Of a stretch of DNA of 64,000 nucleotides, positions 13,555 through 59,331 are shown piece by piece. The notes beneath the pieces were generated by a model, which searched no databases, had not been told where the DNA came from, and saw nothing but the letters and a program-made list of their open reading frames with translations. The stretch is from Squalus acanthias (taxonomy: Eukaryota), in contig CM059432.1 of assembly GCA_030390025.1 (NCBI GenBank), forward strand, positions 41,418,001 to 41,482,000, written 5' to 3'. A program made the position numbers and the translations under genes. Position 1 is the stretch's first letter. Every line of letters starts with the position of its first letter.

Positions 13555-14310
13555 ATGGGTGCTCTAGTTTTCATCCCCCTTGGCCTGCAGCATGACAGGG
13601 AGATGGAGCAGAGGCAGCGAAGAAGAGGATAAGCTGCTCACAGAGGGAGGAGGAGGAGGGCTCTCAGCAGGAGGCCTTACTCATGTAGGGTCTTCCGAGA
13701 GCAATTCTCTTACCTTAGCCTGAGCAAGGAGCAGTGTGTGAGGCGTCTGCGCTTTACGAAGAAGGTTCTCACAGAACTCTGCCACCTCTTTCAACCAGAC
13801 CTGCAGCCTCACACCAGGGCAAGGACAGCGCTGCCAGTGGCTGCGAAGATGACCGTCACCCTGAATTTCATCTCGTTGGGATCATTCCAGGCTGGAGCAG
13901 GCGACATCTGTAACATCTCGCGGTTTGCCGTCCACTGCTGCATAAGAGAGGTGACAGACGCTGTTTATGCCAGGAGAGGGGACTTCATTGTCTTCTCTCT
14001 GACCAGAGAGAAGCAGGCAGAGCATAAACTCGGCTTTGCCAGGATAGTGGACTTCCCCATGATGCAGGGCGCCATCGACTGCATACATGTAGTTTTGCGG
14101 GTGCCGCTTCTAAATACCGAGTAGTACCGCAACCACAAAGGTTACCACTCGCTGAATGTACAGTTGATATGCAACTATGCTCAGCACAGCATGATGGTGA
14201 ATGACTGGTATCCTGGCAGCAGTCATAATGCTTTTATTCTGTGCTAGTCCGCTGTTCCCTCAGTCTTTGAGCTACCACGACAAACCAGAGGGTGGTTACT
14301 GGGCGACAAG
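13555..14310 (+). pseudogene. Harbinger transposase, truncated after GDK
   Basis: MGALV start, GAIDCIH, YPGSSHNAFI, WLLGDK; several in-frame stops. Confidence 0.9.
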
Positions 14311-14425
14311 TGGCAGCACAACAGACTTGGATTGTAAAAAGGGCTCAGTCCCATTTTTGAATATACTTCTATCTTTGTGAGTTTTGTATTCATCAAGGAG
14401 AAGAATCTTACTGCTTCCAACTTGG

Positions 14426-15945: not shown

Positions 15946-18895
15946 GCTTTTTTTTTGCTGCTCTGACTCTCTTCCCCAGCCAGTTCAATGAGCTGCTGCA
16001 GGCAGAATGCACCTCCCCTTTAAAAGGTGCAGATTGGCTTTCAGTAGTGCAGGCTAGTTTTAAGTGGTGCGCGCACGAACTTGGGCCCCCTGCTGAGCGC
16101 TCAGCCACTCAGCAGGGCGCTGAGCATTGGATTGAACCCTGCAATCATGCTAATCAGCAGGCAGCACGAAGTTCGGGTGCTGCCTGCATTCCTTTGAACG
16201 GGCACGCGGTGACCGTGCATCGTGATCCCCGCGCCTGTTTTCGGGGGCAAACTAATTTCTAGGCCCTGAAATATTAAAAGAAAAATAAATATGCAGTCCG
16301 CCATCAGATGTGAGAAAACATCAAATTAACATATAGGAAGAAGCCCCAACCCTAAATATACCTATCTCCAGTATTTTCTGCTTTTTAAATTTGATTTTCC
16401 TTGTGAAAAACGTATATACATATATTTAATGAAGTCGCTGTACACTTTGTCATATTATACTTACAGAGGAATATATTGGTACATTGGGATAGGCACATTT
16501 TTTGAGAATCAGTATAATTTGTTGACGGTCTCTTTGGTTTGGCTGGGTCATGAGTATTGATTGTCTTAAAAGTTTGGTGATGGTCTATGTAGGGGGTGGT
16601 GTGTTCGGGGTCAGCCTCACCTCTGACTCAGTGAGCGGTTCGAATCGCTCCCACGCCCCTGGTTCTAGACCTTGGACTTATTTAAGGGTTGTGAATAAAG
16701 GTGCAGTAGACAACAGGTTTGATGAAAGAACTTTGACCTTTATTCAAGGAAGTAAAACACAACACAAAGGGGTAGAAATTAGGTCGCGCCCCATTTGGGG
16801 CGCAAATATCGTCCGGACGCAAATATTAGCGCCTGGCGCTAATTATCGGCACTGACAGGAAACTTCACTTTTACCGCCCCGGGAGGTGAGTGGAGCGCTA
16901 AAGCAGGCGCTGCACACCTCTCTTAAGGCGTAAAGGCCGAGCAGTGAGGCGCTAACTCGGAGCGCTGGCGAAGCTCATGTAATGTCAGTCAGCAATGGAA
17001 CACACACACAATGGCACGGGCCAGTTCTTAAAGGGGATGGTTAATCTTGCTTTCCATCCACATCCTGTTCATTGCTGCCTTGAATCTCGGCCTGGAGAGA
17101 CTTGCACATCAAATGTGCTGGAAAGAACAATGGAGCGTACCAGGCAAAGAGCTCAGAGTGCAGCTCCCACAGTCTCTGCTAAATCGATACAAGGAATGGC
17201 AAATCAAAATGAACCTGCAAAGTGCTGCTCAGTACCCAAAACTCCTTCACACAACGTTGAATCTCTCCAGAAGTCTCTCCCTCTCTCTCTCAGAATGCGT
17301 AGTTCAAAAATGCCACCAACAATAAAAGACAGGAAGAGGCCCCCTTTAAATAGCGCCCCCCCCCAGCCCCACAGCGATTTCGAGTTGTCCTCCTGCACCA
17401 AGGCCTTCAGTGCTGCATCGGAGAACCTTGTAGTGCACTCTTTCCCCAGTCGTGATATCATCGCTTTTTTTTTGCTGCTCTGACTCTCTTCCCCAGCCAG
17501 TTCAATGAGCTGCTGCAGGCAGAATGCACCTCCCCTTTAAAAGGTGCAGATTGGCTTTCAGTAGTGCAGGCTAGTTTTAAGTGGTGCGCGCACGAACTTG
17601 GGCCCCCTGCTGAGCGCTCAGCCACTCAGCAGGGCGCTGAGCATTGGATTGAACCCTGCAATCATGCTAATCAGCAGGCAGCACGAAGTTCGGGTGCTGC
17701 CTGCATTCCTTTGAACGGGCACGCGGTGACCGTGCATCGTGATCCCCGCGCCTGTTTTCGGGGGCAAACTAATTTCTAGGCCCTGAAATATTAAAAGAAA
17801 AATAAATATGCAGTCCGCCATCAGATGTGAGAAAACATCAAATTAACATATAGGAAGAAGCCCCAACCCTAAATATACCTATCTCCAGTATTTTCTGCTT
17901 TTTAAATTTGATTTTCCTTGTGAAAAACGTATATACATATATTTAATGAAGTCGCTGTACACTTTGTCATATTATACTTACAGAGGAATATATTGGTACA
18001 TTGGGATAGGCACATTTTTTGAGAATCAGTATAATTTGTTGACGGTCTCTTTGGTTTGGCTGGGTCATGAGTATTGATTGTCTTAAAAGTTTGGTGATGG
18101 TCTATGTAGGGGGTGGTGTGTTCGGGGTCAGCCTCACCTCTGACTCAGTGAGCGGTTCGAATCGCTCCCACGCCCCTGGTTCTAGACCTTGGACTTATTT
18201 AAGGGTTGTGAATAAAGGTGCAGTAGACAACAGGTTTGATGAAAGAACTTTGACCTTTATTCAAGGAAGTAAAACACAACACAAAGGGGTAGAAATTAGG
18301 TCGCGCCCCATTTGGGGCGCAAATATCGTCCGGACGCAAATATTAGCGCCTGGCGCTAATTATCGGCACTGACAGGAAACTTCACTTTTACCGCCCCGGG
18401 AGGTGAGTGGAGCGCTAAAGCAGGCGCTGCACACCTCTCTTAAGGCGTAAAGGCCGAGCAGTGAGGCGCTAACTCGGAGCGCTGGCGAAGCTCATGTAAT
18501 GTCAGTCAGCAATGGAACACACACACAATGGCACGGGCCAGTTCTTAAAGGGGATGGTTAATCTTGCTTTCCATCCACATCCTGTTCATTGCTGCCTTGA
18601 ATCTCGGCCTGGAGAGACTTGCACATCAAATGTGCTGGAAAGAACAATGGAGCGTACCAGGCAAAGAGCTCAGAGTGCAGCTCCCACAGTCTCTGCTAAA
18701 TCGATACAAGGAATGGCAAATCAAAATGAACCTGCAAAGTGCTGCTCAGTACCCAAAACTCCTTCACACAACGTTGAATCTCTCCAGAAGTCTCTCCCTC
18801 TCTCTCTCAGAATGCGTAGTTCAAAAATGCCACCAACAATAAAAGACAGGAAGAGGCCCCCTTTAAATAGCGCCCCCCCCCCAGCCCCACAGCGA
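15861..18895. repeat. Tandem duplication, 1517-bp unit (15861-17377 and 17378-18895)
   Basis: Identical ORF sets offset by 1517 nt; the only difference I noticed is a C-run of 9 vs 10; TT microhomology at the junction. Confidence 0.95.
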
Positions 18896-20240
18896 TTGAT
18901 AGCGTTCCAGTCTTCTGGTCGTTGGAAGCGCCAGGCGGTAAGGCAGGGGGCGCCACTCAATTTCCGCTACGGGGCGCCACAAGGCGTTGCACCATGGAAT
19001 GACGTCACAATCTGCGCGCGCAGGTGGTCGCAGCGGTAAGTTTTAGCGCCGCCGCACAATCTCAAGTTAAGTTCTCGAGCGGCGCAAACATCGCTGCGCC
19101 CGGGCGTTAGCGGCTTTGCGCCCCATTAGCGCCCTCTTAAGGCGCTAACGGGAGGCGCAACCAAGTGAATTTTTACCCCAAACACTCTTATCACTCTAAA
19201 AGTGGGGAACACTTCGGTACAAGCAAGGGAAATAACATTAGGAGAATACTTCACCCCTCCCAATCCCACTTCACTAGCTAGGTTGGACTCTGGAGAACCA
19301 GGGATAATGCTCACCAAACGAATCCTTGACAGTTGAGAGTTAGGGTTTAGAGTCTTTTGAGTAAAAGGTATCATAAGGCCCTTGTTGCCGCGAGGTGTCC
19401 GATGGTCACTGAGGCAGTCGCTCTGGTTTCTTCTTGCGTGTCGGTCTGCTTGTGAAGTTGTTGGCCTTCTTTGTTGAACTTCTTGCTGTAACTCCGCCTC
19501 TGTTTAAACTGTCTTCTTCCGAGCTGTGGAACTGCCTTCTTGCAGAACTGTGGAAACTGCCTTCTGCCTGCTTCTGTAACTGCCGCCCCTGACTTCTGTT
19601 CAACACAGGCTTTGAATTCTGTTGAACTTGAACTCCCTTCTTACTGAACTGTCGTAACTGCTTGATGGGCCTTCAATTATACTAAATTGAAGTGGCCTTG
19701 TCAAAACCAAATCCAATCCTGGTCATTGTAAGACCTCGTTAACAGTAACAACTTTACTAGCATGTTAACTGGTTTTGTAAATGTGTGAAGTAGTTCTCCA
19801 TCCTGTCGATCTGTTGTTTAATCGGAGTTTGCATTGTCCTCGTGTTTTGGGTTTCTTGACTGGGCCTGGGGATTTTCAAAAAGTGTCTTGAATTATTCAA
19901 TTTTGGATGTGTTGTGAGGTTTTGGGTGAGGTTCTTCCTCCTGCCTGGATTGCAGTGCAAACAAATTCCAGACAGCTTGACCCCAAAAGCTGTCCACTGC
20001 CTCGCCACACCCCTTCACAGCCTGTCTTGTGTCTGTGAAAGGTGTTTTTCCCCATAGTCATTTTCAAAAGTCATTTTTCCTCAGGGTTTTTCTTCCCTGA
20101 TCTTTAAAATGTCCAAAACTGAGGTTTTTACCTCAAATCACTTCACTTAGGTCTCATCATCCCAAATTCGTAGGAAGAATCCAAAAATCACCCCTTTTAG
20201 GGTTCTATACGAGTTTCTGGGGAATTTTGCGAAGCTTACA
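16520..20240 (-). mobile_element. Long solo-LTR-like element (intact copy 18037-20240, ~1.3 kb without its MITE; left part duplicated at 16520)
   Basis: TG...CA ends (tgttgacgg / gaagcttaca), flanks aatt/catt (imperfect TSD), AATAAA on - (ctttattc), internal short tandem repeats ~19450-19660. Confidence 0.55.
18286..19179. mobile_element. Harbinger deletion-derivative MITE (partial duplicate at 16769-17377; relative at 37029-37911)
   Basis: TIR ggggtagaaatt / aatttttacccc, TSD AAA. Confidence 0.85.
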
Positions 20241-20993
20241 CATTGTATGATTTGGGGACTTCTTCTTTGTGGTGCCTCAGGAGAGGGTTGTCAGTTTGAG
20301 GCTCCCATCTCACTTTCTTGAGCAGTGGTCTGGGTCATTGAGGGAGGTGTTTGGTCATGTTGGCTTGATAATTCCCAAGTTCTAAGCCGAGCCCATACAT
20401 CACTCTTTCTGATTGGCATGTGTCCTACAAATTCCCATACTGCCACATTGGGGGAATGCATCATCTTACAGCTAGCTGTGGCAGTTGTGCTAGCCTGCAT
20501 GTTGCTAGTGATATTTGCATCCCAATGGGTAGACCCAGCAGGCATGGGCTTGGATATGCAGGGGTTGTGAAGTCTGTGGTCATTCGGTCATCTGCCAAGA
20601 ATGGCTGAATAAGAAGGGCAGGAACAGAACAAGTGCAGCAATCCCTCCAGTATTCATTCCCTCAAACTAGATATGGGGTGTGGTACGCTTGAAATATTAT
20701 TCTGCTAGTTGTGAGGATGTGAGTCCATATTTTTCTTTTGTTAATTTGTTCTCAGGATATGGGTGACCCTGGTAAGGTCGTATTTATTGCTCATCCCACG
20801 TTGCCCTGATTGTCGCTCTTAAGCCTCTCTGTGACTTTCTCTGTTGCAGGCTCCCAGTATGTTGTGTGCTGCCCAGTGTAAAGGCATGTGATGATATCAG
20901 CTCTTGCACCCAAAGCACCACATTGATTTTGGCATTTAATATATTATTGGTCGAATACACATTTTATATGGTTCTCTTTGTTTCCCTCCCCAG

Positions 20994-22560: not shown

Positions 22561-23649
22561 TTGCTGTAAATACACAGCTTCAGTAACACTCCAGATAGAT
22601 AGACTGTTTGCTGGAATCGTTTGTGTTCCAAGGATACCTTTCTTCTCGTATTCTTTCTGGCTCTTCATGTCAATGAAGGTGCTGTGTAAATAAGATTTAT
22701 GTTTGAATGATGATGGTTTTTGTGCCAGTTGTTTTTAAGTATCTTTCCACTATGTTAATATTGAACTGAAATGTTCATGGCACAAAACGAACAATGCTTA
22801 TGATGCTTCTGCTACAACCCGAGAGGACAAGTTTTTAAGAAAAAGATGAATGCAATTCCTTTATAATCTGGTGTGATCGTGCTTGAGGTGGCAGTAGATA
22901 TATTGCTGATTTTGCTTGTGGAAATGATGTTTTTGGCCTCAAAGTGTTTTCTTCTTACTTGCTGTATGTGTTACTTTTAATGTGCAAACATCTGCCAAGC
23001 TGACTTCTTGTGCTGCAGTGGTCATTTTCTTCTGCCCATGACATTCTTGTGGGACTCCTTATTACTGGTGCTCAGGGATGACTGGCAATACTGATCATTA
23101 ATAGTACAGTGCCAGGAATATCATGCTCCTGGACCTGGCTACTGGAATGACTAGTTTGTTAGAAATTACTTAAACATGTATTTTTTTTTATACCATGGTA
23201 TAATACCATTTTTGAACTTCTCTAAACTTACAGAAACCCCGTGAGATGAACCAACAGAATAGGGCCTCATCTGTCTGGTTGTCAAATTAGCAGATTTAGC
23301 TTCAAGTCAGAGAGAAAACCTTATTATAACGTTTTATCAAGCTGCATACAACATCTCAAAGCTGATGCAAACAATCACAGTACAATGTCAGCACAGAACC
23401 TTCTTGTGCGGAATATTTATCTTTTGTGGGGGTAAATATTCTGCGAGATGTGCATTTGAAATATTTTGAATGTGACATTTTCCAAATTGTGGATTGCTCT
23501 TGAGGATTATAGTGCTAAGATATTGCAGTGTTGCCCTGAGAGAGATTGAGGTGGGGTTGAGTGTGTTTGTAACACTCAATTAAAAGTGTGCCAGCTAAAT
23601 AATGCATTAGCTTTTGCACTGCAGCTATTAGAAATCATAGGAACATAAT

Positions 23650-24392
23650 GGCCCAGAAATTAAACACCGAGTGTTCACGCGGGGGTAAGGCTTCCCCGCG
23701 ATATCTCACTCCGCGCCTACCTTTTTCCTCCGGGCCCACACAAACTTTAGTTTCAAGGCTGCAGCTGTGCCGTGCTTGCGTGACCCAGAGACGCAATTAG
23801 TTCGTGTGAGCTCTGGGATCACGTGATTCAGTTAGAGCCAATGGCAGCACACCATCTTTCATTCATAGTTTTGACAGCAAGGGCTGTCAAAGCTATGAAT
23901 ACTATACCCCCCCAAAAGAACAGCTAAACCTCAATTAAATAAAAAAAAAGCCATCACATTAATAAAATAAGTATAGTTAAATAAATTAACCACTTTAAAC
24001 AAAAAATTAAATTTTTGAAAAAATTTAAAATCTTTTTAAAAGTTATAAAAATAAACTTACCTTTCTTTAAAGTCTCTAAAAAAGATAAACCTGTTGAAAT
24101 GTTTTTAAAATAATACTTAATTAACTACTTACCTTGTTAAAAGAGGGTCTTACGCCTCCTTTCTTTATGTGTAAAATCTTCCATGCTTACCTGCGCGTTC
24201 AAAGCACTAAGTGCACTGCGTGTGCGCAGCCTGTAGTGGGCACGCGGTTCACTTAGGAACCGCCCCCTTTTGAATTCACGAAGTGCCGGTTTCCCGCGCA
24301 TGCGCAGTGCATGCTGGAAACCGGCAATTGGAGACCTAAAACGCGAGAGTACACAGTGCGTACTCTCGCGTATTAGGTCTAATTTTCGGGCT
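23650..24392 (+). mobile_element. Harbinger-type MITE family A, copy 1
   Basis: Highly similar to 49278-50028; TIR ggcccagaaatt / aattttcgggct; flanks aat/att. Confidence 0.9.
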
Positions 24393-24549
24393 ATTATATA
24401 ACTGCATTGTACCCAGAATCACATTTAGCTTGTCTGAATGTTATAATAATTAATTGCATGGAAATAGTCCCCAATATCCAACATTAAATAACTAGAAAAC
24501 CATTGCTTGTCTTTTTTTTCTTGTAGGGTTGAATCAAGGTAAATGTACC

Positions 24550-36754: not shown

Positions 36755-38450
36755 AGAATCATAGGAACAGGAGTAGGCTATTCAGCCCCTCGAACCTGTT
36801 CCACCATTCTATTAGATTACGGCTGATCTGTACCTCAACTCCATTTACCCGCCTTTGCTCTTGATACCTTTTCCTAATAAAAATCTGCCTATCTCAGTCG
36901 TGAAAATTTCAATTGACCCAGCATCCACAGCCTTTTGGGGAGAGAGTTCCAGATTTCTACTACCCTTTGTATGAAAAAATGCATCCTGATTTCACTCCTA
37001 AATAGCCTAGCTCTAATTTTAAGAGTAAGGGGGAGAAATTCGGTATCGCCCCGTTTGGGGCGCAATTATCGGCCAGGCGCAAAGTTCAGCGCCTGGCGCT
37101 AATTATCGACTCCGACTGCAAACTTGGCTTCTATCGCCCCTGGAGGTGATTGGAGCGCTAAATCAGGCGCTACACACACCTCTCTTAAGGCGCTAACGCT
37201 GAGGAGCGAGGCGCTACCTCAGAGCGCTGTCAAAGCTCATGTGATGCCAGTCAGCAATGGAACATAGACACACTGGCGCCAGCCAGTTCTCAAAGGGAAG
37301 GGTCGATCTTGCTCTCCATCCACATCCTACTCATTGCAGCCTTGAATCTCGGCTTGGAGAGACCTGTACATCAAATCTGCTGGAAAGAACAATAGAGAGG
37401 CCCAGGGAAAGAGGTCAGAGTGCAGCCCCCATAGTCTCTTCTAAATCAATGCAAGGAAGGTCAAATCAAAATGAACCTGCAAAGTGCTGCTCAGTACCCA
37501 AAACTCCTTCACACAGCGTTGAATCTCTCCAGAAGTCTCTCTCTCTCTCTCAGAATGCGTGGTGCAAAAATGTCACCGACAAAAAAAGGCAGGAAGCGGT
37601 TGCCTTTAAATAGCGCTCCCCCAGTCCCTTCCCGACTGCAAAATGCTCCCCTCAACCTGTCGTTGTTAGCGGCAGGCGGTAAGGCAGGGGGCGCCACTCA
37701 ATATCCGGTCCGGGGCGCTACCGGGGCGTTGCACGCTCGACTGATGTCACGATCTGCGGGCGCAGGAGATCGTGATGGTAGTGTTTAGCGTCGCCGCAAA
37801 ATGTCTGTTCAATTTCGCGAGCGGCGCAAACATCGCCACGCCCCGGGCGCTAGTTGCTTTGCGCCCCGTTAGCGCCCTTAGGGAGGCGCAAAGCAACCGA
37901 ATTTTTCCCCCTAAGTCCCTTGATCTAGATTCTCCCACCAAAGGAAATAATTTCTCCGTATCTATGCAATCGAATCCTTTGTCATTTTAAAGACCTTGAT
38001 TAGGTCACCCCTCAACCTTCTAAACTCAAGAGAATACAAGCCAAATTTATACAAACTGGCTACATAATTTAACCCTTTAAGCGCCGGTATCATTCTGGTG
38101 AATCTGTGCAGTACCTCCTCTAAGGCCAATATATCCTTCCTGAGGTGTGGTGCCCAAAATTGAATGCAATACTCCAGATAGGGTCTGACCAAGACTTTAT
38201 GCAACTGAAGCATAACTTCCTCAGTTTTGAATTCAAACCCCTTTAATATACAGGCCAACATTCCATTAGCCTTTTTGCTTATTTTTTGTACCTGAGCACT
38301 AGCTTTTAGTGGTCTTTGCATATGGACACCCAAATCCCTTTGCTCCTCCACAGTTCCTAATCTCTTGCCATTAAGAAAGTATTTCGACTCCTCTTCCTTG
38401 GATCCAAAGTGGATAACCTGACACTTCCCCACATTGAATTCCATCTGTCA
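36755..38450 (-). mobile_element. CR1 LINE 3' part interrupted by a MITE
   Basis: ORF 37962-38444 with LVRPYLEYCIQFWAP and YSLEFRRLRGDLI; CR1 3'UTR. Confidence 0.9.
37029..37911. mobile_element. Harbinger deletion-derivative MITE
   Basis: TIR gggggagaaattcgg / ccgaatttttccccc, TSD TAA; minus strand keeps an ATGGGGGCTGCA start like the transposase start at 7556. Confidence 0.9.
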
Positions 38451-39159
38451 TAATTTTGCATAATTTTCCATTGACTTCAATGGAAATAAAAATCGGGAGA
38501 GATGTTAAATGGGCTGCTGATTCACTGTCACCCTTTTTATACTATCTCACAAAGTCAAAATTAAGTGAGTTGGCGGACAGATGAGAGATGCAGTTTAAAT
38601 TAAAGTGTGAGGTAATACACTTTGGATATAAGAAAGTCAAATGGAAATGCAATCAAATTGAGAAAGGCCTTTGGGGGGCCAGGTGGGGGAGGTATCATGA
38701 GATATGTGTGCCCCAGTACATAAGTCATTAATAGCTGGCTTGCATGTGATAAAAGCAATCACAAATAGTAATGGGATGCTGGGCGTCAACATGGGCTATA
38801 GAATATAAGATAAACAAAGTGCTACTGCAATTAGCCTGAGCTGGCCAGATGATATATTAGGGTAAATTTTATAAGCCTTGCGCTGCTACAGGGCCATGCC
38901 TGCAGCTATTCATATCAGAAAATTGCAGGCAGCACACTTATGATTTTCCAATATGTGTTAGCTGTATGCAAGGCTCCACGGATGCTGAAGGTCCTCACAA
39001 AATGCACCCTTTCAAGTTCGATTTTGGATGCTCCACCTTAAGAATTATACAGGCCTCAGCAAAATCCAGCAATCATTCATCAGAATGAACCTGGGATGAG
39101 GGCACTTGGAAAACTTGGTTAATATTCTCTGCTATTGAGGGGTAATCTGACTGAGGTAG

Positions 39160-39840
39160 GAACATAAGAATTAGGAGCAAGAGTAGGCCATATGGTCCTT
39201 TGAGCCTGCTCCGCCATTCAATAAGATCATGACTGATCTTTGACCTCAACTCCACTTTCTTGCTCGATCCCCATATCCCTTGATTCCCCTGGTGTCCAAA
39301 AATCTACTTATCACAGCCTTGAATATACTCAACGACTCAGCATCCACAGCCCTTTCAAGCCCAGAATTCTAAAGATTCACAACCCTCTGAGTGAAGAAAT
39401 TTCTCTTCATCTCAGTCTTAAATGGCCGACCCCTTATCCTGAGACTATGCCCCCTAGTTCTAGACTCTCCAGCCAGGGGAAACAACCTCTCAGCATCTAC
39501 CCTGTCAATCCCCTTCAGAATCATAATTTGTTTCAATTAGATCACCTCTCATTCTTCTAAACTCCAGAGAGTATAGGCCCAATCTACTCAATCTCTCCTC
39601 ATAGGTCAACCCTCTCGTCCCAGGGATCAATCGAGTAAACCTTCGTTGCACCGCCTCTAAGACATGTATGTCCTTTCTCACATAAGGAGACCAGAACTGC
39701 ACACAGTACTCCAGGTGTGGTCTCACCAAAGCCCTGTACAATTATAGTAAGAGTTCTTTACTCTTGTACTCCAATCCCCTTGCAATAAAGGCCAACATGC
39801 CATTTGCCTTCCTAATTGCTTGCTGTACTTGCATGCTAAC
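39160..39840 (-). mobile_element. CR1 LINE 3' end
   Basis: [18 protein letters not shown]...[12 protein letters not shown]; ttcttatgttc tail. Confidence 0.9.
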
Positions 39841-40081
39841 ATATTGGCCCTGAAATTGCGGTGTCTGCGATAGCGTACTCTGAGAGTATGCCATCATATT
39901 CTCTTTGAAAGGCCCTGCAAGTTCCAGATTTCTACATGTGCTTGCGCATGTGCGAAATCCAGAATTTGTGATCTGTCCAGGTACGCCTGGACAGATCATC
40001 CAAACCGCCTGAAAACTCAGTATTGCTGGCACAGGGTGGGCTATATATCCAACAACTGCCCAGCAATTGCTCACGCAACTC

Positions 40082-43000
40082 TTTTTTAAAATTCGTTTTT
40101 ATGGGATGTGGGCATCGCTGGCAAGGCCAGCATTTATTGCCCATCCCTAATTGCCCTTTGAGAAGGTGATGGTGAGCCGCCTTCTTGAACCACTGCAGTC
40201 CGTGTGGTGAAGGTACTCCCACAGTGCTGTTAGGGAGGGAGTTCCAGGATTTTGACCCAGCGACGATGAAGGATTGGCGATATACTTCTAAGTCAGGATG
40301 GTGTGTGACTTGGAGGGGAACTTGGAGGTGGTGGTGTTCCCATGTGCCTGCTGCCCTTGTCCTTCTAGGTGGAAGAGGTCGCAGGTTTGGGAGGTGCTGC
40401 CGAAGAAGCCTTGGCGAGTTGCTGCAGTGCATCTTGTAGATGGTACACACTGCAGCCACGGTACGCCAGTAGTGGAGGGAGTGAATGTTTAAAGTGGTAG
40501 ATGGGGTGCCAATCAAGCGGGCTGCTTTGTCTTGGATGGTGTCGAACTTCTTGTGTGTTGTTGGAGCTGCACTCATCCAGGCAAGTGGAGAGTATTCCAT
40601 CACACTCCTTACTTGTGCCTTGTAGATGGTAGAAAGGCTTTGGGAAGTCAGGAGGTGAGACACTCGCCGCAGAATACCTAGCCTCTGACCTGCTCTTGTT
40701 GCCACAGTATTTATGTGGCTGGTCCAGATAAGTTTCTGGTTAATGGTGACCCCCCCAGGATGTTGATAATGGGGGATTCGTTGATGGTAATGCCATTGAA
40801 TGTCAAGGGGCGGTGGTTAGACTCTCGCTTGTTGGAGATAGTCATTGCCTGGCACTTCTGTGGCGCGAATGTTACCTGCCACTTATCAGCCCAAGCCTGA
40901 ACGTCGCCCAGGTCTTGTTGCATGCGGGCATGGACTGCTTCATTATCTGAGGAGTTGTGAATGGCTCTGAACGCTGTGCAGTCATCAGCGAACATCCCCA
41001 TTTCTGACCTTATTTTGGAGGGAAGGTCATTGATGAAACAACTGAAGATGGTTGGGCCTAGGACACTGCCCTGAGGAACTCCTGCAGCGATGTCCTGGGG
41101 CTGTGATGATTGACCTTCAATCACCACAACCATCTTCCTTTGTGCTAGGTATGACTCCAGCCAGCGGAGAGTCCCCCCCTGATTTCCATTGACTTCAGTT
41201 TTACTAGGGCTCCTTGATGCCACACTCGGTCAAATGCTGCCTTGATGTCAAGGGCAGTCACTCTCACCTCTGGAATTCAGCTCCTTTGTCCATGTTTGGA
41301 CCAAGGATGTAATGAGGTCGGGAGCAGAATGGTCTTGGCAGAACCCAAACTGGGCATGAGTGAGCAGGTGCCGCTTGATAGCGCTGTCAATGACACCTTC
41401 CATCACTTTGCTGATGATTGAGAGTAGACTGATGGGGCGGTAATTGGCCTTGTCCTGCTTTTTGTGGACTGGACATACCTGGGCAGTTTTCCATGTTGTC
41501 GGATAGATGCCAGTGTTGTAGCTGTACTGGAACAACTTGGCTAGAGGCGCGGCTAGTTCTGGAGCACAAGTCTTCAGCACGATAGCTGGGATGTTGTCAG
41601 GGCCCATAGCCTTTGCTGTATCCAGTGCGCTCAGCCGTTTCTTGATATCACGTGGAGTGAATCAAATTGGCTGAAGACTGGCTTCTGTGATGGTGGGGAC
41701 CTCAGGAGGAGGCCGATATGAATCATCCACTTGGCACTTCTGGCTGCAAACACTACAGCCTTGTCTTTTGCACTCATGTGCTGGGCTCCCACCATCATTG
41801 AGGATGGGGATATTCATGGAACCTCTTCCTCCCAGTTAATTGTCCACCACCATTCACGACTGGATGTGGCAGGACTGCAGAGCTTTGATCTGATCCGTTG
41901 ATTTTGGGATGGCTTAGCTCTGTCTATAGCATGCTGCTTCCACTTTTTAGCATGCATGTAGTCCTGTGTTGCAGCTTCCCCAGGTTGGCACCTCATTTTT
42001 AGGTACACCTGGTGCTGCTCCTGGCATGCTCTTCTACACTCCTTATTGAACCAGGGTTGGTCCCCTGGCTTGATGGTAATGGTAGAGTGAGGGATATGCC
42101 AGGCCATGAGGTTACAGATAGTGGTGGAATACAATTCTGCTGCTGCTCCACAGCGCCTCATGGATGCCCAGTTTTGAGCTGCTAGATCTGTTCTGAATCT
42201 ATCCCATTTAGCACGGTGGAAGTGCCACACAACACGATGGAGGGTGTCTTCAGTGGAGACAGGTAGATTGGTGAGGACAAGGTCAAGTAGGTTTTTACCT
42301 CGTGTTGGTTCACTCACCACCTGTCGCAGGCCCAGACTGGCAGTTATGTCCTTCAGGACTCGGCCAGCAGTGGTGCTACTGAGCCACTCTTGGTGATGGA
42401 CATTGAAGTCCCCCACCCAGAGTACATTCTGTGCCCTTGCTACTCTCAGTGCTTCTTCTAAATGGTGTTCAACATGGCAGAGTACTGATTCATCAGCTGA
42501 GGGAGGGCAGTAGGTTTCCTTGTCCATAAGCCATGAGACTTCATGGGGTCCAGAGTCAATGTTGAGGACTCCCAGGGCCACTCCTTCCCGACTGTATACC
42601 ACTGTGCCGCCACCCCTGGTGGGTCTGTCCTGCCGGTGGGACAGGACATACCCTGGGATGGTGATGGAGGAGTTTGGGACATTGGCTGAAAGGTATGATT
42701 CTGTCAGGCTGTTGCTTGACTAGTCTGTGGGACAGCTCTCCCAATTTTGGCACAATCCCCAGATGTTGGTGAGGAAGACTTTGCAGAGTCGACTGGGCTG
42801 GGTGTGCCATTGCCGTGTCCATAGCTGGTGCCGAGGTCGATCCATCCGGTTTATTTCTTATTATTTTGTTTTGTAGTAACTGAGTGGCTTGCTAGGCCAT
42901 TTCAGAGGGCAGTTAAGAGTCAACCACTTTGCTGTGGGTCTGGAGTCACATATAGGCCAGACCAGGTAAGGACAGCAGATTTCCTTCTCTAAAGGACATT

Positions 43001-43203
43001 AGTGAAACAGATGGGTTTTTACCACAATCCGATAGTTTCATGGTTACCATTACTGATAGTAGTTTTTTTATTCCAGATTTATTTAATTAACTGAATTTAA
43101 ATTCCCCAGCTGCCATGGTGGGATTTGAACTCACGTCTCCAGATCATTAATCCAGCTCTACTGGATTACTAGCCCAGTGACATTACCACTACGCTACCAT
43201 TCC
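40082..43203 (-). mobile_element. CR1-group LINE (APE endonuclease + RT, decayed) with tRNA-derived SINE-like 5' head
   Basis: [30 protein letters not shown]; box A (43186-43196) and box B (43121-43132) at the 5' end; A-rich 3' end; CTC on both flanks. Confidence 0.88.
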
Positions 43204-43311
43204 CTCGTACAGCTGGTGAAAGCAGGTAAAGGGCCTGCTTGCATCAGAATAAGGGTATATATAATGCTTAAATAAAACATTTAAAAATCCAAAATTATGC
43301 ACATACACTTT

Positions 43312-44115
43312 GGCTGGAATTTTCTCAAGGTTTAGGGCGGGGGCCTCCGAGATGGGCCTGATTTGAATGTGAGGCCTCGGATTCCCGATTGAGAGGCTGG
43401 CCAGCTGCGAGTGGGTAGGCCTCAGAAGCGAGGGTCTGGTCCAGGGGAGGGATCATGGGAGGGGGGTCGGCAATCAGCCGGGGTCGGGGGTCGGGGGACA
43501 AGATCGGCCGGGGTCGGGGATCGGGGCTGGGTGGGGGGGTCGGCCAGGGATCACGAGGGGTGGGGGGTCGGCCGGGGATCACTGGGGGTGAGAGAGGATC
43601 GGGACCTACCATCGGAGGATTGTGGCCGGCCTCATCATCATCGTGGGGGCAGGAGGCCGGGGGGAGGGGGGGTGGAGGCCCGGTTGTTGACGGGGTGGGG
43701 TAGGGGGGGAGGCCTGGGAGGTGATCGGAGGCCTGTGAGAAGGTCTCTGATTGCAGGGGGGGGGGGTGGGTTAGGTTGGGACCCTGGATCCAGGAGGTAG
43801 GTATAAAGCCACTTACCTCCGGGATGCAGCAGTGTCCACCTCTGTTTAACTGCCGGGTTTCACGAATTGTGTGAAACCCGTCCACAGGCAGTTAAACACA
43901 AAATGGAGGGGTAACGAGAAGCTTCCAGCCTCATTACAATATTTAAATTGAGGTAACGCCCCCAGGGATTGGGCTGGTTGCCCGCCCCCATCCCGCCTCC
44001 AAAAAACTGGAAGTGGGTGGGTTAGAGACGGGATCAGGTCAGGAATCCCATTTTTAACACTTTAACTGCCCCCATGCGCCAAACCCACCCCTTCTTTTAG
44101 GGGAAAATTCTGGCC
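43312..44115. mobile_element. Harbinger-type MITE with G-rich centre
   Basis: TIR ggctggaatttt / aaaattctggcc, TSD TTT. Confidence 0.8.
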
Positions 44116-46056
44116 TTTAAATGAGTTATGCAAGTATTGGCCCAGATTAAATGTTTAAAATTATTTATCAAAAAATGTAATTTTTATTGAGGTTGGTGCA
44201 ATGAAGGAATTTATGAATAAAATTGCAATCCAGTACAATGTATCATTATTAGAATTCTGTACATTCTATAATTATTTGGGGATTCCATTGCATATCATTA
44301 CGGAATTTCCTTCGTAAATGATTGCAATGGAATCCTCCTTTGTCACTGGAGGACCGGGCCCATGTGATCCCAGGGATTCTTCCGAACTGCCTGCGTCCCT
44401 GGGATCCGTGGGCCTTTAAGCTGCTGTCTGCCTGGAGGCTTGAGACCGCTTCACAGCCTGGCCAGCCAGCAGGTAATTTCTGAATTGTTTCACGGGTCGG
44501 AGGCGTACTCCGGAGGTACTCCTCCGACCGCAATTTCTAGGCCTCTGTACTTCCTGTACGAGGGCACCTAAATCTCTCTGAACACCAACAGTTAATCGTT
44601 AATAAAGCAGGAGTGACATCAGCACACCTTGCCTCATTTTCCTGGGTCTCTGCTTGGTGAAGGACCAAATAGATTGACACCCATGAAAAGTGATGCTTTG
44701 TGATTGCACCCAGTCCCCTCAGCTGGGACAGGCAGTAAACACATGAAGGCACCAAAAGGATAATTACCGTTTCTGCCAGGTGCAGCAACATTGGATCTTT
44801 GAATCTGGAGGCCTTCTGGCTGTTGTTTTCGGACGGCAACCAGAAGTCCCCATAAGTTGTTAGGCCATTACTGCTGCTGCAGGCCTCCTTTGTTTCTGGG
44901 AAAAAAGCCCCTTCCTAGTGGCATTCCTATACCAGGGGAACATCAGGCCCCACTTGTAGCTGGAAATATAGGTTGGTCCACGCAGGGAAGGAAAATCCGC
45001 CCCAGTGTCTGAGCAATGTTAAGAGCTAAGGCATGTTGTTGAGGTGGAATAGAGGGAGCTTTACACTGAATCTGGCTGTGTTAAGCCTGAGCTAGAAGCA
45101 TTTGATGCTGACACTGGAAATGAAAAGATACAAACAGTTCCCAGCACTAACATTCCTCATTTCAATGAAACAACAACAACATCTGGCATTGGCAAACTTG
45201 CATAATCAAATAAATTCTAATCATTGAGGTAATAATAGCTTAAATACAATTACATTTTTTGACCAACTTTTATTCAGGTCATTTCATCGATACAACATGT
45301 ATTATTCTGGAGCTTATCCTCTCAAATCAAGCAAGTGGTGCATATGCTGTCCTAACATACTAATCTCTTCGCTCCATTTAATAATCTCCTGTAATCTGTT
45401 TTTCAAAAGTGATATCATTTCTGACTGATTGAAATGTTAGATCATGTTAAAATGCTGCGGCCTAGCTCCTTTTTTTTACCTTTGATATGTTGTTGAGTTC
45501 TGTATCTTTATCGCGTAAATACAAGCTCTTATCTCATACTCCATACTCATAGCCTGGAGCTACTGCTGAGTTCATATGGAAAATATTTTGATTCCCAACA
45601 TGCCTGGGGGACAATGAGTTTTCTTAATGCAATAGGAAAGAAAGGGCTGGTTTCAATAAACACACAAAATGATGAGGTTAGGAGAAGCATTACTGAAGTA
45701 TGGGTTTTTGAACATCTCCACTTTTTATTTAGCAGCTGTAAGTGATTCCGTGAACTACATTTGGTAGAATCACTGGGTAATTTGAAGATTTATGGTTTTT
45801 TTAAATTTGTAAAGTCAATAAAAAGTAACAGAATCCGTTTTCTTGGTGCTTCCATAAAATCAAGTCTTTCAAATCTGTAAAAGCAAATGCTCTCTATACA
45901 GTTAATTCCAGTTGTTTTTCTTTAAACTACTTTTTATATTTCAAAGCAATTTGTTAAGGCTGTTACAATAAGATACAATTTTAAACAATAACACTAGAAT
46001 CAATGATTAATTGAATTGCTATAACTGTAACATTAACAGTAGAACTGAGGCTATAA

Positions 46057-48790: not shown

Positions 48791-49277
48791 ATCATTTAAG
48801 CAAAACAGCTCCATAGGTACAATTTTTAAAATGAGCGCAATAGGGACTTTAAAAAAAGTACCAGAATGGGGTTAATTTTTTTTTTAACTAGAGAAGTTTA
48901 CTGTAGTAAGTTTGGAGAGTAGATTGTGTTAGGGGGCTGATCCAATGAAGGTCATAAAGAACTGGTTGGGATTATCCTTGTGTAGCAGAGTGAAAGTCTC
49001 CTATTCTTTATCTGAACTGTGGTTGGCATCCATACTTTCCACTCTATTGACAGCTGTTTTTTTTCCACATTATGTTTTTTTATTTCAAACAGAAGAAATA
49101 AGGATGATTGAAAACAAGTCCATCCTAGTATTTTTATATCTGGTTAACATCAACACAGCTTTTAGCAGTTTATTTTCCATAATACAACTTGTCTTTTTCC
49201 ATTACACTGTGAATCCATTATTTTTCATACCCTTATCATATATTTCATGTTCCTGATACTTTATTGAGAAACATATT

Positions 49278-50028
49278 GGCCCAGAAATTAAACACGGAGC
49301 GTTCCTGCGGGGGTAAGGCTTCCCCGCGATATCTCACTGCGCGCCTACCTTTTCCCTCCGGGCTCACACCAACTTTAGTTTCAAGGCCAGTCCCACATGC
49401 AGCTGTGCAGTGCTTGCGTGACCCACAGACACAGTTAGTTCGTGCGAGCTCTGGGATCACGTGATTCAGTTAGAGCCAATGGCAGCACACCATCTTTCAT
49501 TCATAGTTTTGACAGGACAACTGTCAAAGCTATGAATACAACTTACCCCCAAAAGAACAGCTAAACCTCAATTAAATTAAAAAAAAACCATCACATTAAT
49601 AAAATAACTATAGTTAAATAAATTAACCACTTTAAACAAAAATTTAAATTTTTGAAAAAATTTAAAATCTTTTTAAAAGTTATAAAAATAAACTTACCTT
49701 TCTTTAAAGTCTCTAAAAAAGATAAACCTGTTGAAAAAAATTAAAATAATACTTAATTAACTACTTACCTTGTTTAAAGAGGGTCTTACGCCTCCTTTCT
49801 TTATGTGTAAAATCTTCCATGCTTACCTGTGCGTTCAAAGCACTAAGTGCACTGCGTGCGCGCAGCCTGTAGCGCGCATGCGGTTCACTTAGGAACCGCC
49901 CCCTTTTGAGTTCACGAAGTGCCGGTTTCCCGCGCATGCGCAGTGCATGCTGGAAACCGGCAATTGGAGACCTAAAACGCGAGAGTACACAGTGCGTACT
50001 CTCGCGCATTAGGTCTAATTTTCGGGCC
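49278..50028 (+). mobile_element. Harbinger-type MITE family A, copy 2
   Basis: TIR ggcccagaaatt / aattttcgggcc, TSD ATT. Confidence 0.92.
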
Positions 50029-50489
50029 ATTTTATCAGGAAGAAAAGCTTCATGTGAAACTAGCCGCGTTATGCAAAGTCAATTTGATGGTGCAAGCATT
50101 GACCAGTTTTGGCTTTCCACTATGTGCAGTTCCTTTCATCCAAAACGAAACTTGGAAGCTTTTATTACAATTTGGTTAGACTCCAGTCTGGCCCTTTGTT
50201 CTTTTCTTTTCATCTAGCAAGACATCATAATTTGTAGCCTACGGGTGACTTTCAGTCATACAGCCATCAAGAGAAAGTCAACCAGCCAACCCATTACCTT
50301 GCAAATCTGTTGCTTGCTTTAAGGTTTGACTGCGAATAGCGGGCACAATTTTCACTTTGCTTGTTACTGAAAACTTTAACTCAGCAACTCCTTTACAATG
50401 CTAAAATAATACTCAAGACAACGGGAGGACCACAGGGTAGATTTTCCTCTTTGGGCATCTGACAGGAACAGCATACCTGCAGTGTACTG

Positions 50490-52542: not shown

Positions 52543-54790
52543 GGAATATAGGAACAGGAGTAGGCCATTTAGCCCCTCAAGCCTGTTCCACAATTCAATG
52601 AGATCATAGCTGATCTACGACCTAACTCCATATACCTGCCTTTTCCCTTAATACCTTTGGTTAACAAAAATCTATCAATCTCCGATTTAAAATTAACAAT
52701 TTCTCTAGCATCAACTGCCATTTGCAGAAGAGAGTTCCAAACTTCTACCACCCTTTGTGTGTAGAAGTGTTTCCTAATTTCACTCCTGAAAGGTCTGGCT
52801 CTAATTTTTAGACTATGCCCCCAGTCCTAGAATCCCCAACCAGCAGAAATAGTTTCTCTCTGTCTACCCTATCTGTTCCCCTTAATGTTCGGAAAACTTC
52901 TAAATTCCAGGGAATACAACCCTAGTTTGTGTAATCTCTCCTCGTAATTTAACCCTTGGAGTCCAGGTATCATTCTGGTAAACCTACGCTGCACTCCCTC
53001 CAAGGCAAGTATATCCTTCCTAAGGTGTGGTGCCCAGAACTGCTTAAAGTACTCCAGGTGTGGTCTAACCAGGGCTTTCTATAGCTGAAACACGACTTCT
53101 ACCCCCTAGTATTCTAGTCCTCTAGATATAACGGCCAGCATTCCATTAGCCTTTTTGATTATTTTCTGTACCTGTTCATGACATTTTAATGATCTATGTA
53201 CCTAGACCCCCAAGACTCATTGCACCTTCACTGTTTTTAGCTTTTCACCATTTAGAAAGTACCCTGCTCTATCCTTTTTAGGTCCAAAGTGGATGACCTC
53301 ATATTTGCCTATATTGAAATACATTTGCCACAGTTTTGTCCATTCACTTAATCTATCAATATCCCTTTGTAATTTTATGCTTTCATCTACACTGCCCACA
53401 ATACCGTCTATCTTTGTGTCATTGACAAATTTGGATATGTGGCTTTCTATCCCATCATTAATAATTATGGTGAATAGTTGAGGCCCCAACACAGATCCCT
53501 GCGGGACACCACTAGTAACATCCTGCCAATTAGAGGACCTACCCATTATCCCTACTCTTTGTCTCCTGCCGCTCAGCCAATTTCCTAATCAGGTCAATAT
53601 TTTGCCTTTAATTCCCTGGGTTTCAACTTTAGTTAATAGTCTCTTATGTGGGACTTTATCAAATGCCTTCTGGAAATCCATATAAATAACATCCACAGAC
53701 ATTCCCCTGTTCACTACTTCAAAAAATGTAATCAGATTCGTCAGGCATGACCTACCTTTCACAAAACCATGCTGGCTCTCTCTGATCAGCTGAAAATTTT
53801 CAATGTGTTAAGTCACCCTATCATTAATTATAGAGTCTAGTAATTTTCCGACAACAGATGTTAGGCTAACTGGTCTATCATTCCTTGGTTTCCCTCTCTC
53901 ATCATTCTTAAAAAGCGGAGTGGCATGCGCAATTTTCCAATCTAAAGGAATGGTTCCTGAATCGAGAGAACTTTGGAAGATTATAGTTAGGGCATTTGCA
54001 ATGTTCTCACCTACTTCCTTTAAAACCCTGGGATGGAAACAATTTGGCCCTTGGGGATTTGTCACTCTTTAGTGCCATTATTTTCTTCATTACTGTTATT
54101 TTACTTACATTCATTTTGGTGAATCCCTGTCCCTGATTTAATATTAGTTTCCTGGGATTTCCGGCTTGCTGACCTCTTCTTCTACTGTAAATACTGATGT
54201 AAAGTAATTATTCAACAAGTCCGCCATTTCCTTATTTTCATTGACATTATTACCGTTATCACTTTTCAAGGGGCCAACATTGATCCTGACCACCCTCTTT
54301 TTCCTAATATAATTGTAAACATTTTTTGTGTTGATCTTGATATCCCTTGAAAGTTTCTTTTCATACTCCCCTTTTTGTAGCTCTTACTATCTGTTTTGTC
54401 ACCCTTTGCTGTTCTTTGTATCTTTCCCATTCTCCAGGATCTGTGCTATTTTTTACATTTTTGTATGCTTTTTCTTTTAGTTTTATGTTGTTTCTTACCT
54501 CTTTAGTCATCCATGGCTATATTTTTTGGAAAGTAGAGCTCTTACCCCTTAGGGGTATAAACTGGTTCTATATCACATTAAATTATTTTTTGAACACCTC
54601 TCTTCTGTCATTTTAACCATTAACAGATTTGCCCAGTTTACTGTGGACAGTCTCTGTCTCATCGCATTGAAGTCAGCCTTACCTAAATCTTGAATCTTAG
54701 TAGTTATTTCGCGTTTTTCCCTTTCAAACACTACGTTGAACTCGATCGCTGTTAGATAAATGTTCACGCACCGTTAAGCCTTTGCCTTCT
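52543..54790 (-). mobile_element. CR1 LINE, decayed ORF2 and 3'UTR
   Basis: [33 protein letters not shown]. Confidence 0.9.
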
Positions 54791-56641: not shown

Positions 56642-57384
56642 GGGCCAAAAATTCATCCCGCGACGCGAGAGTACGCATTGCGTACTCTCGCGTATTCTCT
56701 CTCCAATTGCCGGTTTTCTGCATGCCCTGCGCATGCGCTGAAAACCGGCACTTGGTCTTATGAAAAGGGGGCGGTTCCTCGGTGCATCGCGTGCGCGCTA
56801 CAGGCTGCGCGCACGCTGTGCACTTCGTGCTTTGGACGTGCAGGTAAGTACGGAAGATTTTAGAAATGGAAAAAGGAGGAGTAAGACCCACTTTTAACAA
56901 GGTAAGTAGTGAATTAAGTATTTTTTTGAATTTTTTTTAACAGGTATATCTTTTTTAGAGACTTTAAAGACAGGTAAGTTTATTTTTATAACTTTTTAAA
57001 AGATTTTAAATTTTTTCAAAAATTTAATTTTTTATTTAAAATGGTTAATTTATTTAACTATACTTATTTTATTAATGTGATGGTTTTTTTTAAAATTTAA
57101 TTGAGGTTTAGCTGTTATTTTGGGGGGGTGTAAGATTCATAGATTTCACAGCACGTATGTGAAACTTATGAATGGAAGATGGTGTGCTGCCATTGGCTCT
57201 AACTGAGTTACGTGATCCCACAGCTCGCACGAATTCACTACGCCGGTGGGATACGCAAGCACTGCCCAGCTGATGTCTGGAACATCAAGTTCGTGCGAGC
57301 TGGATCTGAAAAAGCACACGCGGAGTGAGAGATCGCGGGGAAGCCTTACCCCCGCGGGAACAGAGTGAGATCAATTTCTGGGCC
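56642..57384 (-). mobile_element. Harbinger-type MITE family A, copy 3 (more diverged, inverted)
   Basis: TIR gggccaaaaatt / aatttctgggcc, TSD ATT. Confidence 0.88.
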
Positions 57385-57684
57385 ATTATCTCTAAAAGTT
57401 TCCCCACCACCGACGTTAGGCTGACGGGGCTGTTGCTGCCAGATTTATCCCTCTCCCCTTTTTTAAACAGGGGTGTAACATTTGCAATCCTCCAGTCCTC
57501 TGGCACCACTCCCATATCCAAGGAGGATTGGAAGATTGTGGCCAGAGCCTCAACAATTTCCACCCTTAATTCCCTCAGTAATCAAGATGCATCCCAGCCC
57601 GTGTGACTTTTCTATTTTGAGGACTGCCAAACTTTTAAGTACATCCTCTTTATCTATTTTTTATCCTATCCAATATCGCTACTG

Positions 57685-59331
57685 AAAGAAATTAGTATTA
57701 GTAAAAAAGTAGTACTGGAGAAATTAATGGGACTGAACGCCGATAAATCCCCTGGACCTGATGGTCTACATCCTAGGATTTTGAAAGCGGTGGCTATAGT
57801 GATAGTGGATGCATTGGTTGTCATTTTCTAAAATTCCATAGATTCTAGAATAGTTTCCGGAGATTGGAAGGTAGCAAATGTAACCCCACTATTTAAGAAA
57901 GGAGGGTGAAAGAAAATGGGGAACTACAGACCAGATAGCCTGACATCAGTAGTAGGGAAAATGCTAGAATCTATTATTAAGGACATGGTAACAGGGCACT
58001 TAGAAAATAATAATAGGATTGGGCAGAGTCAACACAGATTTATGAAAGGGAAATTGTGTTTGACAAATCTGTTAGAGTTTTTTGAGGTTGTAACTAGCAG
58101 AATAGATAAGGGGGAACCAGTGGATGTGGTGTATTTGGATTTTCAGAAGGCATTCAATAAGGTGCCACACAAGAGGTTATTAAACAAAATTAGGGCTCAT
58201 GGGATTGGGGGTAATATACTAGCATGGATTGAGGATTGGTTAACGGACAGAAAACAGAAAGTAGGAATAAACGGGTCATTTCCGGGTTGGCAGGCTGTAA
58301 CTAGTGGGGTACCGTAAGGATCAGTGCTTGGGTCTCAGCTATTCACAACCTACATCAATGATTTGGATGAGGGGACCAAATGTAATATATCCAAGTTTGC
58401 TGATGATACAAAGCTGGGTGGGAATGTATGTTGTGAAGAGGATGCAAGGAGACTTCAAGGGGATATAGACAGGCTAATTGAGTGGGCAAGAACATGACAA
58501 ATGGAATATAATGTGGAGAAATGTGAAGTTATCCACTTTGGTAGTAAAAATAGAAAAGCAGTGTATTTTTTAAATGGCGAGAGATTGGGAAATGTTGGTG
58601 TTCAGAGGGACCTGGGTGTCCTTGTACACGAATCACTGAAAGTTAACATGCAGGTACAGCAAGCAATTAGGAAAGCAAATGGTATGTTGGCCTTTATTAC
58701 AAGAGGATTTGAGTATAAGAGTAAAGACGTCTTACTGTAATTATATAGGGCCCTGGTGAGACCACACCTGGAGTATTGTGTACAGTTTTGGTCTCCTTAC
58801 CTAAGGAAGGATATACTTGCCATAGAGGGAGTGCAACAAAGGTTCACCAGACTGGTTCCTGGGATAGGGGGATTGTTCTATGAGGACAGATTGAGTAGAC
58901 TGGGCCTATATTCTCTAGAGTTTAGAAGAATGAGAGGTGATCTCATTGAAACATGCAAAATTTTTACAGGGCTTGACAGGGTAGATGCAGGGAGGAATTT
59001 CTCCCTGGCTGGGCAGTCTAGAACCAGGGGGTCACAGTCTCAGAATAAGGGGTCGGCCATTTAGGACTGCGATGAGGAGAAATTTCTTCACTCAGAGGGT
59101 GGTGAATCTTTGAAATTCTCTACCCCAGAGGGCTGTGGAGGCTCAGTCGTTGAGTATATTCAAGACAGAGATCGATAGATTTTTGAATATTAAGGGAATC
59201 AAGGGATATGGGGATAGTTCAGGAAAGTGGAGATGAGGTAGAAGATCAGCCATGATCTTATTGAATGGCGGAGCAGGCTCGAAAGGCCAATTGGCCTACT
59301 CCAGCTCCTATTTCTTATGTTCTTATGTTCT
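57685..59331 (+). mobile_element. CR1 LINE, 5'-truncated, relatively young
   Basis: Colinear RT domain with point stops ([21 protein letters not shown]); (ttcttatg)n tail; TACTG on both flanks. Confidence 0.93.

Follow-up and report, generated by a model that had tools for sequence, protein, structure and literature searches.

The tRNA(Thr)-like head of the ORF1-less Zenon LINEs of sharks and rays, a predicted internal promoter for RNA polymerase III

Long interspersed elements (LINEs) are usually described as coding elements transcribed by RNA polymerase II (Pol II), and short interspersed elements (SINEs) as non-coding elements which RNA polymerase III (Pol III) transcribes (PMC5786205). 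The family which we discuss here, the Zenon LINEs of sharks and rays, bears on this division. We have studied a copy from Squalus acanthias found in a stretch of 64,000 nt (assembly GCA_030390025.1, contig CM059432.1, positions 41,418,001–41,482,000), which we call the window. Stuart et al. 2026 (PMC13343379) found Zenon in five elasmobranchs, the coelacanth and hagfish; in the accessible part of that paper all the sequences surveyed lack ORF1 and have poly-A, so the expectation of the original prediction that a LINE of the CR1 group should have ORF1 does not apply. Their elasmobranch consensuses (SquAca_Zenon-1/2/3, CarCar, ScyCan, RhiTyp and HypSab) are organized as our copy: one open reading frame (ORF) for an APE endonuclease and a reverse transcriptase (RT), no ORF1, an A tail, a length of about 3.3 kb and the same 400 nt at the 5' end. 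Over these first 400 nt our copy differs from them by decay alone. The single ORF is thus ordinary in Zenon and the sequence is already published; what appears to be unremarked is that the element starts with a tRNA-like head. A tRNA head, Pol III and derived SINEs are unmentioned in the main text of PMC13343379, where "tRNA", "Pol III" and "polymerase III" have no match and "SINE" appears solely in the title of a reference. The structure is thus catalogued in part. No prior description of a tRNA-headed Zenon or of a LINE made by Pol III was found in the literature searched, which does not extend to Repbase, Dfam, SINEBase, subscription journals or Zenodo files.

The closest parallel is found in Lepidoptera, where an ORF1-less Zenon also yields short elements with poly-A, made of its 5' and 3' ends and called Persaeus (PMC6740152, accessible text). 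Persaeus is stated there to have neither tRNA homology nor a Pol III promoter, whereas the shark family has a derivative of about 400 nt which carries both tRNA homology and Pol III promoter boxes, and is for this reason a SINE by its anatomy. This derivative joins the 5' and 3' ends of its partner LINE, as Persaeus does; it is also the only shark form which is short and non-coding like a SINE2 element, since the 3.1-kb element codes for an endonuclease and RT (EN-RT). RTE-1_DAn and elements related to it (Kojima 2018, PMC5786205) are LINEs with a tRNA-like sequence which matches many SINE2 elements. However they belong to the RTE clade, and the position, promoter function and T content of that sequence are left undescribed in the paper. 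Bov-tA, SINE2_Gav and CoeSINE4, tRNA SINEs which are built on bipartite RTE or Vingi LINEs, have a tRNA head followed by 5' and 3' parts of a LINE, like the shark derivative; in them the head has been added to a non-autonomous deletion product, whereas in shark Zenon the coding element itself bears it. The ORF-less bipartite derivatives listed in PMC5786205 correspond to RTE, Ingi, Vingi and R2 only.

Two other groups of SINEs also have a tRNA-derived head. MetaSINEs (PMC4824008, accessible part) also start with a head most similar to tRNA(Thr) with A and B boxes, and in bivalves they can use CR1-Zenon partners (PMC11481361, accessible part). They differ by a 66-bp Meta domain placed directly after the tRNA part; shark Zenon has no Meta domain and is coding. 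In the original prediction the block which follows the Zenon head was thought to resemble the MetaSINE central domain, an identity which we have rejected: the block is unlike BivaMeta-SINE1 and BivaMD-SINE1 by eye, neither of two Meta motifs matches the head even with 3 mismatches allowed, and six block motifs have no match in the accessible supplement of PMC4824008, the fish members of its figure 2 being outside the comparison. In sharks, HE1 (with the LINE HER1) and SacSINE1 are tRNA-derived SINEs which share their tails with LINEs of the CR1 group (PMC3747384; PMC5499810, accessible parts). We set them apart by class, HE1 belonging to the V-SINEs and SacSINE1 to the Deu-SINEs; their own sequences are outside the comparison. 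A V-SINE identity of the shark head was rejected as well, as the V-core motif has no match in the window at 3 mismatches and bivalve V-SINEs look different by eye.

The element studied here lies on the minus strand at positions 40082–43203 of the window and starts at 43203 or 43204. From its DNA identity to the 5' ends of the published Zenon consensuses we assign it to the elasmobranch Zenon LINEs (CR1 group), as a decayed full-length copy of 3.12 kb; the published full-length consensuses have 3.24–3.31 kb. Our comparisons use the first 400 nt of each of the 1,003 consensuses in Table S2 of PMC13343379: a 38-letter stretch of the head has its exact match in SquAca_Zenon-1 alone. The head itself (43111–43203) is similar to tRNA(Thr), and its variable region holds an additional hairpin. 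ARAGORN identifies it as tRNA-Thr(agt), the single tRNA in the window. Its Rfam score is 20.3 bits, below the gathering cut-off of 29, and its folding energy has a z of −1.49; the Rfam match covers positions 7–64 of the 71 in the model, so that a full acceptor stem is missing. A pattern scan finds a putative A box (tagcgtagtgg, 43186–43196) and a putative B box (43121–43132, starting at about 43131–43132 and 65 nt from the A box). They are placed where the original prediction had them and are the sole such pair in 64 kb on both strands.

The head is followed by an AT-rich spacer (43021–43105), in which A and T make up 62 of 85 nt while A runs reach 7 nt and T runs 3 nt, and by a block of about 140 nt (42878–43020) which is nearly invariant across the elasmobranch Zenon consensuses. 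After it there is an A-rich tract with a basic leader (42771–42877, delimited partly by eye), which has short deletions in the window copy. The TNIWG motif of the endonuclease begins at 42770, about 108 nt past the end of the block at 42878, and the 433 nt between the element start and the endonuclease contain no long frame. There is indeed no ORF1 and no room for it.

A tRNA-like head is almost certainly a feature of the family, judging from the consensuses. Head and block open all seven elasmobranch Zenon consensuses (white shark, catshark, whale shark, three from dogfish and one from stingray: four sharks and one ray) and the head begins none of the three outgroup ones (two from hagfish, one from coelacanth). 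Two block motifs, searched as exact matches, retrieve precisely those seven rows among the 1,003 consensus starts; six 10-mers of the B box give six matches, all of them in elasmobranch Zenon. The elasmobranch consensuses start within a few bases of one another. The A and B boxes are near-canonical in the consensuses of four of the five species, and by eye the pairing of the variable-region hairpin is preserved through two double-sided changes between the Squalus and galeomorph consensuses. A whale-shark gene model (P0031) has block-derived residues joined onto the endonuclease start. As controls we used 80 metagenome loci of related LINEs: members of the CR1 group, not all of them Zenon, which share 23–43% identity with the search protein. 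ARAGORN found no tRNA in the 50 of them which were scanned, and none of the 25 loci with upstream DNA has an A and B box pair upstream. The block has no blastn match in the 80 loci, and its pattern has no match in the metagenome contigs. In the explanation which we propose, elasmobranchs are the group in which the head was acquired or through which it spread, and the Zenon which received it had already no ORF1.

In the window the head and the ORF were inserted as a single unit. The insert interrupts a miniature inverted-repeat transposable element (MITE) at 39846–44543, which has 17-nt terminal inverted repeats at 39846–39862 and 44527–44543. It is flanked by one pair of target-site duplications, CTC, at 40079–40081 on the tail side and 43204–43206 on the head side (plus strand). 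Since the published Squalus consensus begins with GGG, the element may include the G at 43204, in which case the duplication may be of 2 bp only. When the insert is removed, the empty site is colinear with a related copy at about 11894–12138 over about 247 nt and is ungapped at the junction, with an alignment score of 117; the two halves score 74 and 46, and the best of 278 random stretches scores 32. The rejoining of the MITE noticed in the original prediction is thus confirmed, as is its conclusion that head and ORF came together. The empty-site joint is absent among the 15 joints listed from read contigs.

The frame for endonuclease and RT extends over 40147–42770 and ends at the family stop TAG (40149–40147). 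Pfam finds Exo_endo_phos_2 (E 1.6e-11) and RVT_1 (E 1.1e-16), both in pieces separated by frameshifts, and tblastn with single-ORF relatives of 962–983 aa gives a colinear match over 42836–40160, in several frames, with 29–40% identity. The family thus has the single frame originally predicted; in the window copy it is broken by at least five frame-breaking indels (insertions or deletions), besides several deletions. The breaks are found near 42755, 41836, 41788, 41262, 40750 and 40158, where the read contigs show indels or loose ends, and are thus specific to the window copy. Fragments of shark gene models are the closest proteins (87% in Heptranchias and 79% in Heterodontus, besides whale shark). 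Two word-index searches for long relatives gave two and one proteins, all of them shark host genes with exonised pieces, and the 3' protein piece has no match in viral contigs. Pieces of the LINE ORF are also held in frame by annotated shark proteins (P0001, P0002, P0003 and P0022: aldo-keto reductase, storkhead-box, FERM-domain and CWC25), either by exonisation or by annotation error.

At the 3' end a stem-loop (40103–40147, −25.4 kcal/mol, z −2.81, equalled by 2 of 200 shuffles) is the probable recognition site of the RT. It is followed by an A-rich tail (40082–40102), with a loose end at 40102 in 873 contigs; the tail has A6 in the window copy, A8 in a second copy and an A run in the loose-end consensus. 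The second copy (693–1149, plus strand) is 5'-truncated, 93% identical over 459 nt, and has the same tail variant. Both copies in the window have TTTT before the A run, which in our copy is just ahead of A6; it would be a Pol III terminator within the tail, and they perhaps represent a subfamily. It is a minority variant of the family: a T+ SINE-type 3' end (AATAAA, TTTT, A tail) is present in both copies, is absent from the majority tail of the read contigs, and was rejected as a family trait. An old stretch of 74 nt at 20734–20807 (minus strand) is 73% similar to the stem-loop and tail, without upstream similarity; it is perhaps the tail of a related SINE or LINE.

The shortest terminators of Pol III are TTTT and TVTTT (PMC8466645, accessible part). 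Between 43204 and 40102 (3,103 nt) the sense strand of the element has no TTTT run (T4) and the antisense strand has 16; in mononucleotide shuffles 4.66 are expected in the sense strand (P 0.007). Elsewhere in the window only 1 of 1,092 overlapping 3.1-kb windows is free of T4, and two long CR1 pieces have 8 T4 each. Among related LINE loci 1 of 53 is free of T4, and the seven T-poor loci average 2.3 T4 per kb. Phenylalanine is coded by TTT in 1 of 17 cases and by TTC in 16, with a share of 0.40 for codons ending in T (P 0.002); none of 68 related loci has an equally low use of TTT. TCTTT and TATTT are absent from the window copy, which has three TGTTT. We listed 22 positions where most read contigs differ from it: they overlap two of the three TGTTT and five of the twelve TTT runs (hypergeometric P about 0.006, with 5 of the 22 positions counted for TTT runs), so that the Zenon family is poorer in T runs than this copy. 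By eye, TTTT is found in none of the seven elasmobranch consensus starts and in the three outgroup ones. The CR1 pieces used as T-run controls are canonical CR1-type LINE fragments at 39157–39840, 52548–54116, 57689–59311 and 36755–37027. The sole related LINE without T4, metagenome locus L055:137–1856, also has a low use of TTT (4 of 20), and its 5' end lies off the contig.

The existence of the 400-nt derivative follows from sequencing reads. Four of 24 listed runs were used: X1, which we guess to be DNA, X15, only guessed to be RNA, X23, which is a different organism (155 reads), and X24 (one read). Small shares in two metatranscriptomes (X19 and X20) do not count as evidence. Nine of the 15 joints listed connect the head (42877–42907) with the 3' end (40149–40229), in X1 and X15 and with up to 28 contigs per row. 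Among the joints listed, those between 40149 or 40157 and 42877–42881 are found in 22, 11, 28 and 16 contigs in X1 and in 3 and 4 in X15. In X23 four reads have loose ends at 40157 which run into the block end. The breakpoints are approximate, because their clustering at 42878 partly reflects a deletion in the window copy. In X1 the summed contig depth, which is no copy number and leaves some events uncounted, reaches about 8 million at the 3' end, as compared with 1.17 million in the endonuclease and 1.56 million in the head: relative to the endonuclease bins, the head has 1.33x and the 3' bins 6.9x. This is the usual profile of 5' truncation, with head and endonuclease similarly deep. The original prediction of a SINE-headed family from which SINEs arise by internal deletion has thus gained a head common to the family and the presence of head-plus-tail derivatives. 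Several different breakpoints suggest that later SINEs were derived from the LINE. On the other side, the block is followed by an A-rich tract and the AUG is missing (see below), both of which point to the fusion of an A-tailed SINE head with a clipped Zenon. The two processes are compatible and both can be true.

Head, spacer and block of the window copy contain nine ATGs. By hand reading, in the main consensuses of the five species no ATG occurs in the endonuclease frame, which stays open upstream as far as a stop at the block end, and the conserved ATG of the leader is out of frame; for four of these species homology was used to set the frame, because the 400 nt end inside the leader. The window copy has an ATG in frame at 42845, which is ACG in the consensus and has been brought in frame by a deletion. 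The relatives P0007 and P0010 have a Met start about 30 residues ahead of the TNIWG motif. An in-frame Met is present in 20 of 25 metagenome loci and absent in 5, so that its absence is not unique to elasmobranch Zenon. The "top ORF2 length" of 739–747 aa in the accessible part of PMC13343379 matches no identifiable start codon. We take the lack of an in-frame AUG before the endonuclease as a lead and not as a result; an uncapped RNA would agree with it, and for the translation of such an RNA R2 elements offer a parallel.

These features are best explained by a family of Zenon LINEs in sharks and rays, of autonomous type and without ORF1, which has at its 5' end a predicted internal promoter derived from tRNA(Thr). 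Taken together, they are signatures of moderate strength for a coding retrotransposon made by Pol III. TFIIIC would bind the A and B boxes, and Pol III would transcribe the whole RNA of about 3.3 kb, a length which we propose because T-run terminators would have been removed from the sense strand. The transcript would run through its own A tail into the flank, as in Alu, and the uncapped RNA would be translated by a non-scanning or non-AUG route, perhaps with the help of the conserved block. The EN-RT protein would then bind the 3' stem-loop, and target-primed reverse transcription would insert the element, mostly as 5'-truncated copies. Internal deletions would leave promoter, block and tail: ready-made SINEs. 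That the full-length coding RNA is made by Pol III is a step to which we lean, at slightly better than an even chance. The complete proposal is more tentative and falls somewhat short of even: an autonomous protein-coding element transcribed in full by Pol III, with a 2.9-kb frame selected against T runs, an uncapped RNA translated without an in-frame AUG and a repeated birth of SINEs by internal deletion, all of it kept across sharks and rays.

Several observations weigh against transcription by Pol III and the mechanism built on it. The T-run tests are post hoc and were done on a single decayed copy. The deficit of T4 is weak in dinucleotide (P 0.095) and trinucleotide shuffles (P 0.23), which absorb part of the signal, and in codon shuffles (P 0.32 with its own codon pool, 0.064 with phenylalanine at background). 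When all terminator-like motifs are counted, 3 are seen versus 4.5 in dinucleotide shuffles (P 0.3), and a Harbinger strand in the window is equally depleted with respect to mononucleotide shuffles (P 0.028). A CR1 piece of 684 nt in the window has only one T4. A Harbinger element (7042–10238, plus strand) has a T4-free stretch equally long. In X15 the head is 7.6x deeper than the endonuclease bins, and the promoter may therefore serve mainly short RNAs. The stingray consensus has a B box which is degenerate by eye. The folding energy of the block is ordinary (z −0.61) and does not support a structured block similar to an internal ribosome entry site. In the literature searched no precedent was found for an uncapped RNA made by Pol III being translated into a protein of 950 aa. 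Finally, intact copies are scarce in the published table: 0 of 2,313, 1 of 1,419 and 3 of 612 (PMC13343379, accessible part). The Harbinger element mentioned above is one of two related Harbinger/PIF-like copies (7042–10831 and about 13114–15760, 67–71% alike), the first of which is T4-free on the plus strand over 3.2 kb; from their translations we take them to have a DDE transposase-like frame on the plus strand and a Myb/SANT-like frame on the minus strand.

Many of these points would be explained if the head is inherited with the element while the coding RNA is made by Pol II, either with the block serving as its internal promoter or through transcription which runs in from host introns. 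The boxes would then drive only short RNAs and the SINE derivatives, and the poverty in T would be compositional. The weak significance of T4 in higher-order shuffles, the T4-free Harbinger stretch and the excess of head over body in the run guessed to be RNA all agree with it, as do an AATAAA near the 3' end and the ancestral poly-A of Zenon (PMC13343379, accessible part). It does not account for the specific avoidance of TTT codons, unseen in 68 relatives, nor for the copy-specific mutations which explain 5 of the 12 TTT runs. A capped mRNA which is scanned from its end would also be badly suited by nine ATGs upstream of the leader in the window copy and, by hand reading, no AUG in frame ahead of the endonuclease in the consensuses. 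We consider this alternative unlikely, although it is the one which has to be taken most seriously.

Less probable still, and in our opinion improbable, is that the tRNA-like fold is a signal for RNA processing or translation instead of a promoter. A cut at its 5' side would free it from longer Pol II co-transcripts, as with the self-cleaving ribozymes at the 5' ends of R2, RTE and Ingi, while head and block would recruit ribosomes to the uncapped RNA. LINE clades headed by ribozymes have been described (PMC5786205), and both the hairpin pairing kept through two double-sided changes (by eye) and the consensus starts within a few bases of one another would be expected from such a signal. However it predicts neither the avoidance of T runs nor near-canonical A and B boxes in four of five species. 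Cleavage by RNase P needs an acceptor stem, which is unmatched in Rfam. As for a junction due to a one-off template switch, or to a SINE inserted beside a truncated LINE, such chimeras are known in general, but this origin is extremely improbable here and already refuted by the host-site alignment, with a single duplication pair around the whole insert, and by the consensuses, since all 7, from five species, join head and ORF in the same way, which also shows that the junction is not unique to this locus. The similar depth of the head and endonuclease bins speaks against it too.

The window contains two other repeats. A near-perfect tandem duplication with a 1.5-kb unit is found at 15861–18897 (99.9% over 1,520 nt), which is either recent or an assembly artefact. 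Three copies of an element of about 770 bp (23639–24399, 49267–50035 and 56663–57389) are 84–93% alike, have palindromic ends and are MITE-like.

The presence of a SINE promoter on an abundant coding family makes it testable whether Pol III makes a multi-kilobase mRNA which is translated. It has been proposed that the polymerase sets the requirement for the ORF1 protein (PMC2666806, accessible part), and with a tRNA-headed Zenon this can also be tested. The same holds for the way in which SINE bodies arise, as here the body of the SINE is visibly the 5' region of its partner LINE. If the promoter serves short RNAs only, the head would still be an unremarked structural variant and elasmobranchs would have an undescribed pair of LINE and SINE. 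If true, a coding retrotransposon made by Pol III would erase the divide between Pol II LINEs and Pol III SINEs.

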